Origin: a virus
Lineage: Duplodnaviria > Heunggongvirae > Uroviricota > Caudoviricetes
Length of the DNA stretch: 11,635 nt
IMG/VR virus record: IMGVR_UViG_2639763139_000004
Direction: 5' to 3' (one strand)
Part shown: positions 826 to 11,559 of the stretch, in pieces
How the letters are laid out: every line of letters starts with the position of its first letter
How positions within the stretch are numbered: position 1 is the stretch's first letter
The notes under the pieces: model-generated
Seen by the model: only the letters and a program-made list of their open reading frames with translations
Told to the model about the DNA's origin: nothing
The model's database searches: none
Position numbers and translations under genes: made by a program

Positions 826-900
<75 letters not shown>

Positions 901-903
901 ATA

Positions 904-979
<76 letters not shown>

Positions 980-981
980 GC

Positions 982-1058
982 TGGCCCACCACCGAGGACT
1001 CGAACCTCGCACCGTCAACTTAGAAGGTTGATGCTCTATCCGGATGAGCTAGTGGTGG
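982..1058 (-). tRNA. tRNA-Arg (anticodon UCU, reads AGA)
   Basis: Reverse complement CCACCACTAGCTCATCCGGATAGAGCATCAACCTTCTAAGTTGACGGTGCGAGGTTCGAGTCCTCGGTGGTGGGCCA. Perfect acceptor, D, anticodon and T stems; loop CUUCUAA; encoded CCA; unusual C1:G72. Confidence 0.8.
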
Positions 1059-1059
1059 T

Positions 1060-1136
1060 TGGTGGCCCTTGCTGGACTTGAACCAGCGACCTGGCGATTA
1101 TGAGTCGCTCGCTCTGACCAACTGAGCTAAAGGGCC
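1060..1136 (-). tRNA. tRNA with CAU anticodon, probably tRNA-Ile2 (ileX/ileZ-like, AUA decoder) rather than Met
   Basis: Reverse complement GGCCCTTTAGCTCAGTTGGTCAGAGCGAGCGACTCATAATCGCCAGGTCGCTGGTTCAAGTCCAGCAAGGGCCACCA. Anticodon loop CUCAUAA; overall similarity to E. coli ileX from memory. Ile versus Met identity cannot be settled from sequence alone. Confidence 0.8.
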
Positions 1137-1325: not shown

Positions 1326-1880
1326 TCAAAAAGCAATAACTTTTTTCTCTATACCAAAAGCCATAACCATTGGTTTGTGCAAAATAAATTCTGCCACCTT
1401 TAGCCAATGCTCAATGCGTCTTTCACAGGTTCTTAAACTCCATTTCGGGTGTGCATCATTCAGCAGTTCAGCCATTTTGCATTTGGTCATCCCCCGCCCC
1501 TCATACCGTTGCCGAAGGACGCTAATCAATCCTGGATGCTCTGCCAGCACCTCACTTATGACCCGATCAATACATAACGCCTCTGCATCAGTACAATGCG
1601 CCAGCCAGCTCTTTTGCTTACCGTTAATCATATCCCGCAAAAAAGCCTCAAGTTCAGACTTGTTCAGACCTGCTTTTTTCATCCTCCGGAGCGCCTCGTT
1701 AATTGCCGTTTTTGTCAGCTTTTTAGAGGTCAACATCAGGTTAAACATATTCCCCGTCTTACCGCCACCAATATACGACCAGCGCCCCCACATACGTAGT
1801 TTTCCCTGAATCCAGACACTTTCCAGCGTGGTGAGACGAAGGTGTTCTCCGCTTTTTCCTGTATTCGTTGGGTAAATCAT
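1326..1880 (-). CDS. Putative late-gene antitermination protein Q (184 aa)
   Basis: ATG at 1878-1880 with GGAG upstream, overlapping the stop of the preceding gene (ATGA). Last gene before a terminator, the tRNAs and the holin; follows nin-like genes. The upstream ORF extension to 2000 is rejected. Assignment is mostly positional. Confidence 0.55.
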   Translation of the reverse strand: MIYPTNTGKSGEHLRLTTLESVWIQGKLRMWGRWSYIGGGKTGNMFNLMLTSKKLTKTAINEALRRMKKAGLNKSELEAFLRDMINGKQKSWLAHCTDAEALCIDRVISEVLAEHPGLISVLRQRYEGRGMTKCKMAELLNDAHPKWSLRTCERRIEHWLKVAEFILHKPMVMAFGIEKKVIAF

Positions 1881-3341: not shown

Positions 3342-3497
3342 TTACTTCCTGGATTCGTAGTCTACGAAGACAGCGACCTCCGTCTGGCCGGTTCGGATTC
3401 GTACCTCACAGAGGTCTTTCCTCGTTACCAGTGCCGTCACTATGACGGTTAAACAGATGACGATCAGGGCGATTAACATCGCCTTTTGCTGCTTCAT
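3342..3497 (-). CDS. hok: Hok/Gef-family type I toxin (51 aa)
   Basis: MKQQKAMLIALIVICLTVIVTALVTRKDLCEVRIRTGQTEVAVFVDYESRK is near-identical in pattern to HokD/RelF from memory. ATG 3495-3497 preceded by AAGGAG. An in-frame upstream extension to 3554 is noted as a possible mok-like coupling reading frame. Confidence 0.85.
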   Translation of the reverse strand: MKQQKAMLIALIVICLTVIVTALVTRKDLCEVRIRTGQTEVAVFVDYESRK

Positions 3498-3668
3498 AGC
3501 CTGCTTCTCCTTGCCTTTCGGCATGTAAGAGGCTAACCTACATGTGCAAAGCATGAAATTGGCCTCAGATTAATGTTAAGCGTCTTGCCGGACGCGTAAT
3601 GTTAACTGGGGCTTTTCTCTATCTGCCTTTTGGTGTTCATGCCTGAAGCAGATAGCCTCAAGCACCCG

Positions 3669-3698: not shown

Positions 3699-3724
3699 AT
3701 CAATCAGAAAGGTGCCCCATAAAA

Positions 3725-4411
3725 TCACTCCTTCTCTTCTTTACCGTAGTGGAGTTGACCAATTTTGATAAGAGGGCGTCCCTGAGATTTGCGGTGTAGA
3801 TTGGTATCGCGCAGAGAATACACACAGCCACAATATTCCTGCTGATAGAATTTTTCGCGCTTGCTGATTTCAATCATACGGGACGAGCCGCCCTGCTTGC
3901 GCCAGTTATAATCCCAGTACACCATGCCCGGATAATGCGCGACGGCTCGCCGCCCACAGTCGTTAACCTGCTGCATATTTTTCCAGCGTGAAATGCCCAG
4001 TGAACTGCTGATCACACTGAAACCATTTTCAGCGGCGTACAGCGCTGTCCGCTCAAAACGCATGTCAAAACACATGGTGCAACGGATCCCTCGTTCGGGC
4101 TCCCATTCCATTCCTTTGGCTCGTTCAAACCAGTTGTCTGTGTCGTAATCAGCATCAATAAACGGCACGCCGTGTTGTTCAGCAAAGCGAATATTCTCAT
4201 CCTTACGAATTAAATACTCTTTCTGAGGATGAATGTTCGGGTTGTAGAAAAAGATGGTGTAGTCGATTCCCGAGGCCTGAAGCGCCTCCATCACCTCACC
4301 GGAACATGGAGCACAGCAAGAGTGCAGTAGTAGTTTGTTTGCCCCGTTTGGGAGCTCCAATTTGGGCCGTTTGAAATCAGCAACTGTCATAAATATGTTT
4401 ATTGAGGTCAT
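3725..4411 (-). CDS. queH: QueH-like epoxyqueuosine reductase (DUF208), 228 aa
   Basis: [14 protein letters not shown] motif near the N-terminus plus further Cys clusters (CTMC, CGCV). ATG at 4409-4411; alternative ATG at 4388-4390; neither has a strong RBS. Confidence 0.65.
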
Positions 4412-4558
4412 AAAAATATCAAAGAGTGTAGCATTAGAACGGGGCTATCGGAAACAGATGTGTGACTGCTCCCCGCCCTTTCGGGCGGTCTCCTGATGAT
4501 TTGAGGGTGCAGAAATCCCTCCGGTTAAGGATTAAATTTTTAACAGTGCTAAATTTAA

Positions 4559-4915
4559 TTATTCAGTTCTGGATTTTGTCGCCCTGCGTATCCGCGCTTT
4601 CGCGTTACGCTCAATCTGTATCAGCTTTTCTATATTTCTCCGCCTTTCCTGTTCCTCCTGGCGCAATAGCCTTACATCATCTGCCAGTCTGGTTTCTCTT
4701 TTTGCCACAGAGAGCATCCAGTCAAACGGCTCCACAACCGCACCGCAGATTTTACAGCGGACCTGACGCTCTTTTTCGTCAACCCGTACAGAGGCGTGAT
4801 GGCAATATGGTCTTTCCGATGGCTTATAAAGAAAATTAACCTGATTACGAGGGTCATCCTCTTTTATCGGAAATAAAACGATATTGCTTAACTCATCTTC
4901 TGGTTTTATTTCCAT
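4559..4915 (-). CDS. Hypothetical zinc-ribbon protein with basic coiled-coil tail, 118 aa
   Basis: ATG 4913-4915 preceded by AAAGGAGAGGAGC. Contains CHH...(17 aa)...CKIC. The longer upstream ORF start is rejected. Confidence 0.6.
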   Translation of the reverse strand: MEIKPEDELSNIVLFPIKEDDPRNQVNFLYKPSERPYCHHASVRVDEKERQVRCKICGAVVEPFDWMLSVAKRETRLADDVRLLRQEEQERRRNIEKLIQIERNAKARIRRATKSRTE

Positions 4916-4972
4916 GCTCCTCTCCTTTGATGCGAATGCCAGCGGTAATTGAAGCCTGATAGCTAATTTCAT

Positions 4973-5395
4973 TCACAGTATCGCCTCCTGAAAATTACCC
5001 TGATAGAAAGCCAGTACACGCTGCATAGCTTCGCTCTTCCGGCACTCGCGACAGATTATATTCAGGCGCCTGTCGTAGCGGCGTATTTCTCCGTCAGGTA
5101 ATGACCAGATAAGGTCCGGATCAACAACAACCGGTTTCCTCACCTTTACTCTCGAGAGTTTTTTGCGGGCGCTTTGCCAGTCCTTGCGAGCCTGTTCAGA
5201 CGGGAATAAGCCGTAGCCAGAATTATATACATCACCACTTGCGACCAGTTCTATGCATAAGCGACCGACAGACGCACGACTGATACCTGTTTCATCGGAC
5301 AACTGCCGAATCGTGACCCGACCGTCCTGATGCACGAGTTCCACAATTCGCGTCTTCAGTTCTTCCCGCTGTTCGGGAGTAAAAGGTTTCGCCAT
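4973..5395 (-). CDS. Hypothetical winged-helix DNA-binding protein with C-terminal CxxC, 140 aa
   Basis: ATG 5393-5395 preceded by GGAGG at 5-nt spacing. HTH-like segment TIRQLSDETGISRASVGRL; CRECRK near the C-terminus. No family recognised. Confidence 0.6.
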   Translation of the reverse strand: MAKPFTPEQREELKTRIVELVHQDGRVTIRQLSDETGISRASVGRLCIELVASGDVYNSGYGLFPSEQARKDWQSARKKLSRVKVRKPVVVDPDLIWSLPDGEIRRYDRRLNIICRECRKSEAMQRVLAFYQGNFQEAIL

Positions 5396-5409: not shown

Positions 5410-6156
5410 CTACTTAACAACCCTCGAATGGCTAACATTCGGACGCCAGCTCTCCCAGTTAAAATTCACCCAGCGCCCGCCGTTCATGACCATGCGATCC
5501 ATCACCCGCTCGCCGAGCAATGTTTTCATCACCTCATAGTTCAGGTTTGTCAGCATCCCCACGCTGCGCATCGACGCTGTCCGGCGATCAACAATCTGGT
5601 GCAGCACCACCTGCTCGTTTTTCGTCTCGCGCTGAATGCCAATTTCATCAAGAACCAGCAGATCCACTTCGCACAGCTCCCGCAAAAATTTTTCGCCTGA
5701 CTGCCCGTCGTCATAGCTGGCGTGCAGGGCGCTCATAACATCAGCCACGGTAACCACAATCACTGTCTGACCGTCTTTCAGCAGGCGATTCCCGATAGCT
5801 GCCGCTAAGTGATTCTACCCGGTATCAGGTTTTCCGCTGAACGCAAAATTTGTACACCCGGTCATCAGTTCATCGGCGATGGATTTCGCCTGGCTTAACG
5901 CGTATCGCTGGCCGTCGTTCTGCACCTGGTAATTCGCAAACGAGCATTTACGGTGCAACGGCTGGATGCCTGAGCGATTCAGAATTTTTTCCACCCGCAA
6001 CTGGCGATTCAGGCGGTTGATCTCCTCGCTACGTTTCTGGCCTTCAGCAAGTTGCCACTCGCGCCACTCCGCTACCGTTCTGAATGGGGCGGTTACATGT
6101 GGCGGGGTCAGTCGGCGGATGCGTTCCAGAACGCCGCCTGTCGCAATATTTTTCAT
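5410..6156 (-). pseudogene. DnaC-like helicase loader interrupted by an in-frame amber codon at the Walker A lysine
   Basis: Two listed ORFs (5815-6156 and 5410-5763) are in the same frame. Translation reads ...FAFSGKPDTG-TAG-NHLAAAIGNRLL...DLLVLDEIG..., with TAG at 5815-5817 where the P-loop Lys is expected. Walker B is present downstream. Confidence 0.7.
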
Positions 6157-6547
6157 GGTCCGTTACCCCCTGAAGCCTGGCGGGATCGCACTGTCCGGCA
6201 ACGAGACGGTGTTAACCTGTCGGAGCAACGTCTCAGGCCGAACACCTTTCGGCGCGAACAGACCCTGGTATTCATTGGCGATGCTGTGTCGAATCACCTG
6301 CTCAGGTGTAAAACCCTGCTGACGGAATTTTTCCAGTTCCCGTATCGCCCTGCTCCGTTCGAATCGGTTTTCGCAATGCCTGTCTGAACCGGACCCACTC
6401 ATGCCAGAGTGTTTCCGGCAACCAATCGGGCAGCTCAATAGCCTCCGGCTCGAATTTTTTAGACGCTCGTTTTTGGCGAGGGGGATTTAGGGGGAGATCA
6501 GTATTTAGATCTTCCTCTTCCACTGGTAACGCTTTTTGATCCGTTTG

Positions 6548-6567
6548 TGTAACGCTGGCAGCGTTAC
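6548..6567. repeat. Palindrome TGTAACGC-N5-GCGTTAC, copy 1
   Basis: GTAACGCTG-G-CAGCGTTAC is a perfect 19-bp dyad inside the replisome-organizer gene. Confidence 0.6.
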
Positions 6568-6754
6568 CTTTTCGTTTCAGTTCGCGTATTTTTGTTACTC
6601 GCTCGTTTGTAACCGCCCGTTTTTTAGAGCTTTTTCCGTTATGACGTTCAAAGTTAGGTAGAGAAAGCCCACCGTCATTTTCGACCAGCCATCCAACCTG
6701 AATTAACGTATCAGCAAAACCAGACATAAAAGTGATGCGATCTATTGCACTTTT

Positions 6755-6775
6755 TGTAACGCCGCGAGCGTTACA
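6755..6775. repeat. Palindrome TGTAACGC-N5-GCGTTACA, copy 2
   Basis: TGTAACGC cgcga GCGTTACA, perfect 8-bp arms, inside the replisome-organizer gene. Confidence 0.6.
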
Positions 6776-6946
6776 ATCTGCATTACCGTCTATCATTTGT
6801 TGATCCGCCCATGCCCAGAAGCGAATAACCTTCCCTAATGCGGCATCTGGATCAATATTCAGAATCTCAGCAAGCCTGAATATTTCCGGCTTATCCGGCG
6901 TAATAACCTCGAGCTTTATCCAGTTTGAAGCCATTTGTTTTCACCT

Positions 6947-8692: not shown

Positions 8693-8933
8693 ATACCATG
8701 CGCATTGACTGAATTCGCAAACAAAAACAGACGCGCGATACCCGGATAGTCGGTCTGCATAGTCAGATATCTGGCTGCGAATTTGATAAATATCACCGCC
8801 CTTTTCGGAAACATAAGTTCCGTCCGGGAGTTGATTATACGAACCATCTCCATGGGGGATCGTTCTCCTGAATCCTAGTGAGAGCATATATTTATGAAGC
8901 CCTTCGTAATCCTCTGGCTCAGTGGATTTGCCC

Positions 8934-9839
8934 CTATATTTCCAGACATCTGTTATCACTTAACCCATTACAAGCCCGCTGCCGCAGATATTCCCGTGGC
9001 GAGCGATAACCCAGCGCACTATGCGGATGCCATTCGTTATAATGCTCGAACGCCTCTGCAAGGTTCTTTGCTGCCGTTAACCCGTCTGGTTTGGGCATGA
9101 TACTGATGTAGTCACGCTTTATCGTTTTCACGAAGCTCTCTGCTATTCCGTTACTCTCCGGACTCCGCACCGCCGTGTTCTTCGGTTCAAGTCCCAACAT
9201 CCGGGCGAACTGGCGTGTTTCATTAGCCCGGTAGCATGAACCATTATCCGTCAGCCACTCCACTGGAGACGACGGAAGATCGTTGCCGAAGCGGCGTTCC
9301 ACCGCTCCCAGCATGACGTCCTGTACTGTTTCACTGTTGAAGCCGCCGGTAGTCACCGCCCAGTGCAGTGCCTCACGATCACAGCAGTCCAGCGCGAACG
9401 TGACACGCAGTCTCTCTCCGTTATCACAGCAGAACTCGAACCCGTCAGAGCACCATCGCTGATTGCTTTCTTTCACGGCCACTCTGCCTGTATGTGCCCG
9501 TTTCGATGGCGGTACAGCAGGTTTTCGCTCAAGCAACAGCGCATTCTGGCGCATGAGCCGGTAAACACGTTTGGCATTGATCGCAGGCATACCATCAAGT
9601 TCTGCCTGTCTGCGAAGCAGCGCCCATACCCGACGATAACCATACGTGGGCAGCTCTCCGATAACATGGTGTATACGGAGAAGCACATCCGTATCATCAG
9701 TGTGACGACTGCGGCGGCCATCCATCCAGTCATCGGTTCGTCTGAGAATGACGTGCAACTGCGCACGCGACACCCGGAGACAACGGCTGACTAAGCTTAC
9801 TCCCCATCCCCGGGCAATAAGGGCGCGTGCGCTATCCAC
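8934..9839 (-). CDS. insD: IS2 transposase OrfB (InsD), made as an OrfAB fusion by -1 frameshifting
   Basis: 301-aa frame with integrase-core motifs. Slippery heptamer A AAA AAG at 9839-9845 (minus) sits at the InsC/InsD overlap. Confidence 0.9.
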
Positions 9840-10162
9840 TTTTTTGCCCGTCCATATTCAACGGCTTCTTTGAGGAGTTCATTTTCCATCGTTTTCTTGC
9901 CGAGCAGGCGCTGGAGTTCTTTAATCTGCTTCATGGCGGCAGCAAGTTCAGAGGCAGGAACAACCTGTTCTCCGGCGGCCACAGCAGTAAGACTTCCTTC
10001 CTGGTATTGCTTACGCCAGAGAAATAACTGGCTGGCTGCTACACCATGTTGCCGGGCAACGAGGGAGACCGTCATCCCCGGTTCAAAGCTCTGCTGAACA
10101 ATTGCGATCTTTTCCTGTGTGGTACGCCGTCTGCGTTTCTCCGGCCCTAAGACATCAATCAT
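9797..10162 (-). CDS. insC: IS2 OrfA (InsC), 121 aa
   Basis: ATG 10160-10162; sequence [41 protein letters not shown]... is a typical IS3-family HTH OrfA. Confidence 0.9.
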
Positions 10163-10474
10163 CTGTTCTCCAATGACTAGTCTAAAAACTAGTATTAAGA
10201 CTATCACTTTTTAACATTGATGCAGTCTCTTTGAGAGCTGACATCGCTAATACATCACTTGCTCACTCTTCTTATTGTTGGGGTATTCAGATTATACAAA
10301 TTTCTTGTTGTTGGGGAATAACAGGAACCACCTCGCCTGACGTAGTTAAAAGCAGGCACACAACGCGAAATGACGCGGCGGTAAGTATGGCGGAGTTATT
10401 CCTTCCCCGTTGAGGACACCGGGTTGTCAGGTTGACCATACGCTTAAGTGACAACCACGCCACAACACTCCATG

Positions 10475-10530
10475 TTGATTGGTACCTTTGGCGGCATCAG
10501 TTTCATTGCTGGCTGATGTCCGCCCTTTTT
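10475..10530 (+). ncRNA. dicF: DicF-like small RNA with its intrinsic terminator
   Basis: UUGAUUGGUACCUUUGGCGGCAUCAGUUUCAUUGCUGGCUGAUGUCCGCCCUUUUU shares the UUUGGCGG(U/C)AUCAGUUU core and CCGCCCUUUUU-AAAGUGAAUUUUGUGAUG 3' context recalled for E. coli DicF. Hairpin GGCGGCATCAG/CTGATGTCCGCC plus T5. Same strand as the dicA/ydfA genes. Confidence 0.45.
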
Positions 10531-10826
10531 AAAGTGAATTTTGTGATGCGGTGAATGCGGCTGAGCGCACGCGGAACAGTTAAAAAGCGATTAGTTCCCA
10601 CGTATCGGGTGGTTATGGGTTTCCCTGTATCCGGCGTTAATTGTTAACTGGTTAACGTCACCTGGAGGCACCAGGCACCGCATCAACAAAGTTCACTTCG
10701 GTGATGAAAGGTAAGAGAAAATGTTGAATGTAGCTATTGAAAACCAGAACGGGTGGAATTATAGTGCATCTGCACCTCATAAAACGGGGGCCGGGCGTGG
10801 AAACCCGAACGTTACTCGAGCGCATA

Positions 10827-10848
10827 GCCGCGCTGAAGCGGTTTTTTT
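10827..10848 (+). terminator. Hairpin plus T7 in the leader upstream of the Rha-like gene
   Basis: AGCCGC gctgaa GCGGTT followed by TTTTTTT (10842-10848). Lies inside the rejected N-terminal extension of the Rha ORF. Confidence 0.35.
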
Positions 10849-11017
10849 ATGCGTAATGCACAGCTCCATTCAAATTATGGTGGGATGTGCAGGGCAGTCG
10901 CAAGACTGGCCGGGTTCTCGAGTGACCGGTATTTCCACCCCTGTACGTCTCACCACCCTTATGGTCGTGGAAAACCTCGGTGGTGAGTTAATTAACTTAT
11001 CACTCGAGGATGCCATC

Positions 11018-11559
11018 ATGGCTACTATCCCTGCCCTTTCTCACCCTGACGTAACCATCGAAAACGGTCGCGCTGTCACTACGTCTGTTGCGGTTGCAGA
11101 GTTCTTCCACAAACGACACGACAATGTGTTACGTGCCATCGCAAATACTGAATGCTCACCTGAATTTAACGCCCTCAATTTTGAGGACGTCACCTACACC
11201 GACACCAAAGGCGAAAAACGCCCAATGTACCAAATCACCAAAAACGGCTTCGTTTTCCTGGTGATGGGCTTCACTGGGAAAAAAGCCGCTGCATTCAAAG
11301 AGGCCTACATCGCTGATGTTCGACCGCATGGAGGCAGAACTGCACCAGAATAATACCCCGTCCGCTGACAAGATGATTCCGGGTAACGGTCGCACTCTGG
11401 TTGTGCACTTCGACGAACACGGCAATATCAGATTCACCGAAACTGTTCCTGACGGTGCACTGGTCTGTACCCTGGATACTTTCCAGTTTTATCTGGAAAA
11501 ACAGGGGTGGGCTCTTGTAAACCGGAGCGCAATTAAAAATATGACCGTAGAGCAGCTGC
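11018..11559 (+). pseudogene. Rha-family regulatory protein gene, frameshifted near 11318 and cut at its 3' end by IS2
   Basis: ATG 11018 preceded by GAGGA. Frame 1 gives ...VAVAEFFHKRHDNVLRAI...MYQITKNGFVFLVMGFTGKKAAAFKEAYIAD then VRPHGGRTAPE*. The Rha-like continuation FDRMEAELHQ... is in the +1 frame from 11319 and runs into the IS2 end at 11560. Confidence 0.55.

Follow-up and report, generated by a model that had tools for sequence, protein, structure and literature searches.

The window, which is the whole stretch of 11,635 nucleotides analysed here (IMG/VR record IMGVR_UViG_2639763139_000004), carries on its minus strand an intact queH gene inside a lambdoid prophage. The gene is a cassette captured from an Enterobacteriaceae chromosome, and probably encodes a competent, cobalamin-independent epoxyqueuosine (oQ) reductase that would act on host tRNAs and form a second route to queuosine (Q) beside QueG. 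In about one E. coli genome in five, the last step of queuosine synthesis is served by two enzymes that are not homologous, the second one obtained through a temperate phage. The identification of queH is itself already known in public annotation, where RefSeq/PGAP gives exactly this protein the name QueH. An earlier sequence-only reading of the region had implied a novelty that is overstated in this respect, and the gene identification alone adds nothing.

The longest open reading frame of queH has two in-frame ATG codons, and the true start is probably the second one, at position 4390, which gives a protein of 221 aa. This start is preferred because PGAP picks the equivalent ATG in the near-identical prophage locus L001 and because the N-termini of the chromosomal homologues (MTNPAFKR... 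and MKNADFKR...) align there. The gene and its neighbours in the window, all of them on the minus strand, are:

826-1136, minus strand: tRNA array Gly-UCC, Thr-UGU, Arg-UCU and CAU (Met/Ile2), called by ARAGORN, downstream of the Q-like antiterminator.
1326-1880, minus strand: DUF1133 / Q-like antiterminator, marking where the nin-like region stops; the gene's end coordinate was transferred from the PGAP annotation of L001.
3342-3667, minus strand: hok/sok type I toxin-antitoxin locus, next to queH on its downstream side.
3342-3554, minus strand: hok/mok open reading frame, named hokD by PGAP in L001.
3492-3667, minus strand: sok RNA (Rfam RF01794, 117 bits), overlapping the hok/mok open reading frame.
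3719-4461, minus strand: conserved queH cassette of 743 bp, with a leader of ~71 nt, the coding sequence and ~5 nt past the stop codon.
3725-4411, minus strand: longest open reading frame of queH, 228 aa, from the upstream in-frame ATG at 4411.
3725-4390, minus strand: queH coding sequence with the likely start, 221 aa, from the second in-frame ATG at 4390.
4559-4972, minus strand: small zinc-ribbon-like open reading frame, PHROG 1621 (function label unknown), between DUF977 and queH.
4973-5395, minus strand: DUF977 (ydaW / Ren-like), which closes the replication module and usually neighbours queH on its upstream side.

Membership of the DUF208/QueH family, which had been proposed from the HSCCAPC motif (residues 30-36 of the 228-aa open reading frame), is borne out by the profile search. 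The Pfam model PF02677 (QueH) matches the open reading frame over almost the full profile, positions 1-174 of 175, with E=1.9e-65 and 220.6 bits (curated cutoff, 23.5 bits), and the T. maritima QueH chains 7lc5, 9dco and 9d86 match residues 27-203 with E ~5e-22. By these comparisons the open reading frame is confirmed as an intact, full-length QueH, and its family assignment is secure. None of the NCBIfam models matched it, and therefore the name QueH given by PGAP rests on other evidence.

For residue conservation, diverse relatives were drawn from 50%-identity cluster representatives (4756 matches at E<=0.001), and full-length relatives were aligned with the query in alignments of 46 and 50 sequences. 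The Fe-S cysteines, whose conservation the sequence-only reading had put forward as a check, are all kept: C32, C33 and C36, C111 and C114, and C194 and C196 (228-aa numbering) are invariant in both alignments and line up with the T. maritima cysteines. The window QueH shows the motif classes CCxPC/D, CxxC and CGC, and retains 16 of the 16 invariant columns of the 50-sequence diverse alignment, which in 221-aa numbering are C25, C26, P28, C29, N52, R62, E99, R103, C104, C107, R111, K137, Q184, C187, G188 and C189. The position of T. maritima Asp13 is occupied by Cys (CCAPC versus CCAPD). This change is no defect, because CCAPC is the family norm, being found in 58 of the 66 diverse representatives, with CCAPD in three. 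According to the PDB titles, T. maritima QueH has been solved together with its C9S and D13N mutants, the D13N mutant being 9dco.

An AF2 model of QueH, with the 50-sequence alignment as input, has a pLDDT of 95.8 and a pTM of 0.91. Its best PDB matches in Foldseek are 9d86 and 7lc5 (target TM 0.92, rmsd 1.2 A, ~179 columns), and the next matches are distant alpha-hydrolase-type enzymes, TtuA, TilS and GMP synthase, with E-values at least 1e9-fold weaker. As modelled, the window protein has the QueH fold solved for T. maritima. Past the Pfam domain it has a tail of 20-25 C-terminal residues, which is also present in the chromosomal enterobacterial QueH proteins and is a trait of the subfamily rather than a phage addition.

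Over 8.9 kb the window shares 99.4% identity with L001, a prophage that sits beside ybhA in E. coli FDAARGOS_944. Among the complete E. coli genomes none equals the window exactly, and the best one, at 99.4%, lacks the insertion sequence that the window contains. This insertion and the broken genes of the prophage would be compatible with a Shigella sonnei origin. Read along the minus strand, L001 shows a divergent cI-like repressor, a cro-like gene, YdaT, a replication initiator and a DnaC-like YdaV, followed by DUF977, a small hypothetical gene, QueH, hokD, DUF1367, DUF1364 and DUF1133, and then by the tRNAs Ile2-Arg-Thr-Gly, a holin, a lysozyme, the terminase and head genes. Within this Rac/Qin-type lambdoid prophage, queH occupies the nin-equivalent part of the early-right operon. 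The surroundings that the sequence-only reading had described were all recovered: queH is carried by a lambdoid prophage, it lies beside hok (with both the hok/mok open reading frame and the sok RNA in place), and the tRNA array ends at 1136, 2.6 kb from queH at 3725, with no GUN anticodon in any of its four tRNAs. The CAU tRNA (1060-1136, minus strand) is Met for ARAGORN and tRNA-Ile (lysidine-type Ile2, which reads AUA) for PGAP in L001. If it is Ile2, all four phage tRNAs would presumably read rare codons of E. coli, AUA, AGA, ACA and GGA.

The position directly after DUF977 is also occupied by queH in an O157:H7 prophage, a Qin-like prophage of ST131, Rac at trkG, E. coli 042 and others. 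DUF977 is found within 900 bp upstream of queH in 67 of the 74 IMG/VR contigs with enough sequence, and in 65 of 76 viral contigs Hok follows queH within 700 bp; the PHROG 1621 open reading frame is next to queH in only 24 of 74. The neighbours of queH vary among prophages and include hokD, an NgoMIV-type restriction-modification pair or DUF1971, and the slot adjoining the gene is a variable accessory or defence site. In E. coli O157:H7 Z892 (L013, 4806-6816), genes encoding an NgoMIV-family endonuclease and a cytosine methyltransferase replace hokD downstream of queH.

The cassette limits, 3719 and 4461, are common to prophages with differing flanks (blastn, seven loci), and conservation among 39 unique sequences drops from ~0.88 to 0.4-0.5 upstream of about -72. 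Because the similarity between prophages starts and stops sharply at these two positions, queH moves as a discrete cassette, 743 bp long. Just beyond the upstream boundary of the cassette, at 4468-4492, the minus strand has a GC-rich hairpin (CCGCCC-GAAA-GGGCGG) that lacks a U-tract.

The phage gene was captured from an Enterobacteriaceae chromosome, because its closest relatives (84-90% identity) occupy non-phage chromosomal neighbourhoods. Identity is ~90% to the QueH clusters of Enterobacter and of Citrobacter koseri/Klebsiella/E. albertii, 87% to QueH of Klebsiella aerogenes/Kosakonia, 86% to that of Erwinia, and 80-84% to those of Providencia, Proteus, Photorhabdus, Pantoea, Rahnella and others. 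The gene order is purL-queH-glrK-glrR-glnB in Erwinia (L007), tmcA-DUF441-queH in Providencia (L003), and LysR-acetyltransferase-queH-csbD in an Enterobacter-like contig (L101). The statement that enterobacteria use QueG instead of QueH is right for E. coli, where queG is present in 5426 of 5426 complete genomes and every queH carrier thus has both genes, and does not extend to the order, where chromosomal queH with 80-90% identity is found in many genera. A contig scan, to be read at the level of genera and not of single genomes, also found queG in Photorhabdus, Pantoea, Rahnella and Morganella. Since QueG homologues occur in genera with chromosomal queH, the scan hints that both enzymes together are not unusual in Enterobacterales.

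Prophage queH is held by 995 of the 5426 complete E. coli genomes (~18%), and IMG/VR has it on 188 contigs or more. NCBI files the exact 221-aa protein under 'MULTISPECIES: epoxyqueuosine reductase QueH [Enterobacteriaceae]' and under Shigella sonnei, and at least 1000 contigs encode it. Sixty queH records drawn from along the ranking all have the annotation QueH, and only the weakest of them is a truncated pseudogene. Phage resources lag behind, and neither PHROG 3217 nor phage HannyBb has the QueH name yet. HannyBb, deposited as a complete genome, is the sole near-identical DNA match in the phage collection, and its queH is a 'hypothetical protein'. The queH family phrog_3217 carries the label 'unknown function', and its profile of 188 positions begins at Met41 and does not include CCAPC; this start suggests truncated legacy gene calls. 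Phage pipelines call queH hypothetical, as in HannyBb, because PHROG 3217 has this label and lacks CCAPC.

Protein matches in the phage collection are mostly short unannotated faecal contigs or bacterial-looking records, and they were left out as phage queH. The queH of 'Acinetobacter phage MD-2021a' (L182, which is CAKLQH020000001.1, and CAKLQF020000001.1; 328-378 kb) was rejected, with soxR, cynX and tadA around it. It is 78% identical to the window queH and annotated 'putative prophage protein'. Since the gene lies among ordinary chromosomal genes, these records look like bacterial contigs mislabelled as phage. A search of the searchable literature on QueH or DUF208 together with prophage, phage or lysogen returned nothing about prophage queH.

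In the proposed mechanism, a lambdoid phage captured queH, and the cassette now circulates in the nin-like region of Rac/Qin-type prophages of E. coli and Shigella, in the order replication genes, DUF977, queH, hok/sok, Q antiterminator, tRNAs and lysis. By homology, QueH would bind a [4Fe-4S] cluster with an adjacent iron, an arrangement that Li et al. reportedly described for QueH in 2021. The enzyme would convert epoxyqueuosine (oQ34) to queuosine (Q34) on the GUN tRNAs Asp, Asn, His and Tyr, the epoxide of oQ34 being reduced to the cyclopentene of Q34. Its substrates would be host tRNAs, because the phage's own tRNAs cannot carry Q; the target named in the sequence-only reading agrees with this, as any tRNA substrate must be the host's when the phage tRNAs have no GUN anticodon. 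E. coli has no de novo cobalamin synthesis and QueG needs cobalamin, so a B12-independent back-up is the most economical role for QueH, which would keep Q maturation complete when cobalamin is unavailable. The queuosine pathway of E. coli is established (PMC9508795), and its QueG step is cobalamin-dependent (PMC4646009). Because QueG is always present too, any effect of queH would be conditional, for example on cobalamin scarcity. We infer the activity of the enzyme in E. coli, its time of expression and its fitness benefit, and the benefit is a conjecture.

A further and tentative idea is that prophage queH is a lysogenic-conversion gene, which would make the last Q step cobalamin-independent with a measurable effect on decoding or fitness. 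If this were true, lysogens among ~18% of E. coli, plus those of Shigella sonnei, would hold Q and not oQ on their tRNAs Asp, Asn, His and Tyr in B12-poor niches, and also after loss of the cobalamin receptor BtuB. BtuB is a receptor for phages and colicins. The idea is weakened because no phenotype known to us tells oQ and Q apart, and because queH has no detected promoter or terminator of its own and the early-right promoter is repressed in the lysogen. In a consensus scan, no sigma-70-like promoter was found on the minus strand upstream of queH, with counts equal to the shuffle expectation (weak or non-sigma-70 promoters are possible), and in a scan of the downstream side no intrinsic terminator was found, again with counts equal to the shuffle expectation. 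The leader region 4391-4520 shows no significant RNA structure (z = -1.6), and an Rfam scan at the gathering thresholds shows no riboswitch at the queH leader. The GC content of queH, 0.47-0.50, is inside the range of the window, and its composition is ordinary. Of the traits of a moron, queH shows the discrete insertion with sharp bounds, and shows neither a promoter and terminator of its own nor a deviant base composition. Since these signals are lacking and the GC content is ordinary, transcription of queH may depend solely on the early-right phage promoter, which is repressed in the lysogen.

The same signals bear on a role in the lytic cycle only, which we consider doubtful, in which delayed-early queH would keep the tRNAs that decode NAU/NAC codons matured for phage translation and the lysogen would be unaffected. 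The gene is oriented and placed as part of an early-right operon, with the replication genes before it and the Q antiterminator after it, and both the missing promoter and terminator and a cassette leader of just ~71 nt agree with this role. A single lytic cycle would, however, be short relative to tRNA turnover, and queH is perfectly preserved although the replication genes are broken and an IS is inserted, which fits selection in the lysogen better. Compared with L001, queH shows zero coding differences, whereas the DnaC/IstB-like ydaV gene is cut in two by a nonsense codon (5815-5817) and the replication-initiator gene has lost 11 bp at 6346 and 6 bp at 6523, so that the replication module (5410-6934 of the window) looks dead. 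An IS3-family element at 8923-10481, missing from L001, contains orfA (HTH_Tnp_1, 9797-10207) and orfB (rve integrase core, 8934-9839); a look for its terminal inverted repeats resolved none. The integrity of queH in this decaying prophage argues weakly for selection in the lysogen.

The insertion point of the IS3-family element lies between a Rha/Ash gene and the repressor side of the immunity region. At 10772-10960 (plus strand), Rfam matches to the Hfq-binding RNA isrK (RF01394, 59.6 bits) and to C4 antisense RNA (RF01695, 76.7 bits) overlie the 5' part of an open reading frame with Ash and Rha domains (10721-11353). By these matches, the RNA and the Ash/Rha open reading frame together appear to be a P1/P7-type antisense control unit for an antirepressor-like gene.

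It is improbable that queH is a neutral passenger, a cassette that hitch-hikes in the mosaic nin region and helps neither phage nor host. Such a passenger would be in keeping with the nin region as a known home of accessory genes, with the changing neighbours of queH, with the queG that every host has, and with the lack of a known phenotypic difference between oQ and Q. The alleles themselves speak against it: in pairwise Nei-Gojobori comparisons of six prophage alleles, dN/dS is 0.02-0.05 with dS up to 0.45, and all 80 queH copies on 80 IMG/VR viral contigs are intact, so that prophage queH is under strong purifying selection. All invariant catalytic-site residues are kept, and the gene is spread over ~18% of genomes in distinct prophage types. 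The low dN/dS, the intact copies and the unchanged gene in a decaying prophage argue that queH is functional.

That the phage QueH acts on another substrate, 7-deazaguanine in phage DNA, or in anti-defence, is very hard to credit: phages do use Q-pathway enzymes for DNA modification (PMC6884629) and the nin region often has defence or anti-defence genes, but there are no DpdA/TGT-like or preQ0-synthesis genes in the 24.7-kb L001 annotation or in the scanned open reading frames of the window, the protein is 84-90% identical to chromosomal QueH with no divergence of active-site residues, and no homologues of QueA, QueG or QueH were found in the deazaguanine-modifying viruses analysed by Hutinet et al. 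(2019; PMC6884629). PADLOC gave no match for QueH and only sub-threshold noise for its neighbours, and a defence role was rejected on this result; a DNA-modification role was rejected as no partner genes are present in L001 or in the scanned open reading frames of the window.

As a B12-independent oQ reductase on host tRNAs, prophage queH would give experimenters an easy way to ask whether oQ and Q differ in their physiology, and also whether the supply of B12 limits tRNA modification in enteric bacteria.

Several known systems resemble the window queH. The QueH of T. maritima (7lc5, 7lc7, 9deu; PF02677/IPR003828) shows ~30% identity with the same fold and the same CC.../CxxC/CGC motifs, and differs in having the CCAPD motif and a chromosomal gene, whereas the window QueH has CCAPC and a C-terminal tail and is phage-borne. 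The chromosomal queH genes of Enterobacterales (L101; L009 of Citrobacter koseri/Klebsiella; L007; L003; L005 of Photorhabdus) encode proteins with 80-90% amino acid identity and the same length and N- and C-termini as the prophage protein, and these genes lie in non-phage neighbourhoods, whereas the window queH lies in a lambdoid prophage with sharp cassette boundaries. As a host-derived gene in an accessory slot of a temperate phage, queH is similar to the morons and auxiliary genes of lambdoid nin regions, but differs from morons in that no promoter-terminator unit of its own was detected. It also differs from the phage DNA-modification genes FolE, QueD, QueE, QueC and DpdA, since queH belongs to a late, tRNA-specific step of the Q pathway. 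QueG (YjeS) of E. coli is predicted to share the reaction and the tRNAs with QueH and is co-resident in all carriers, but it is non-homologous, needs cobalamin as well as a [4Fe-4S] cluster, and is encoded by a core chromosomal gene, whereas queH is accessory. According to reports attributed to Zallot et al. (2017), an E. coli queG mutant regains Q when it receives duf208 genes from other bacteria, and Acinetobacter baylyi ADP1 has both QueG and QueH and is said to lose Q only when both genes are deleted. A. baylyi ADP1 would thus be the closest parallel in having two redundant oQ reductases in one cell, as in queH-carrying E. coli, with the difference that in E. coli and Shigella the second enzyme is supplied by a prophage, in only ~18% of strains.
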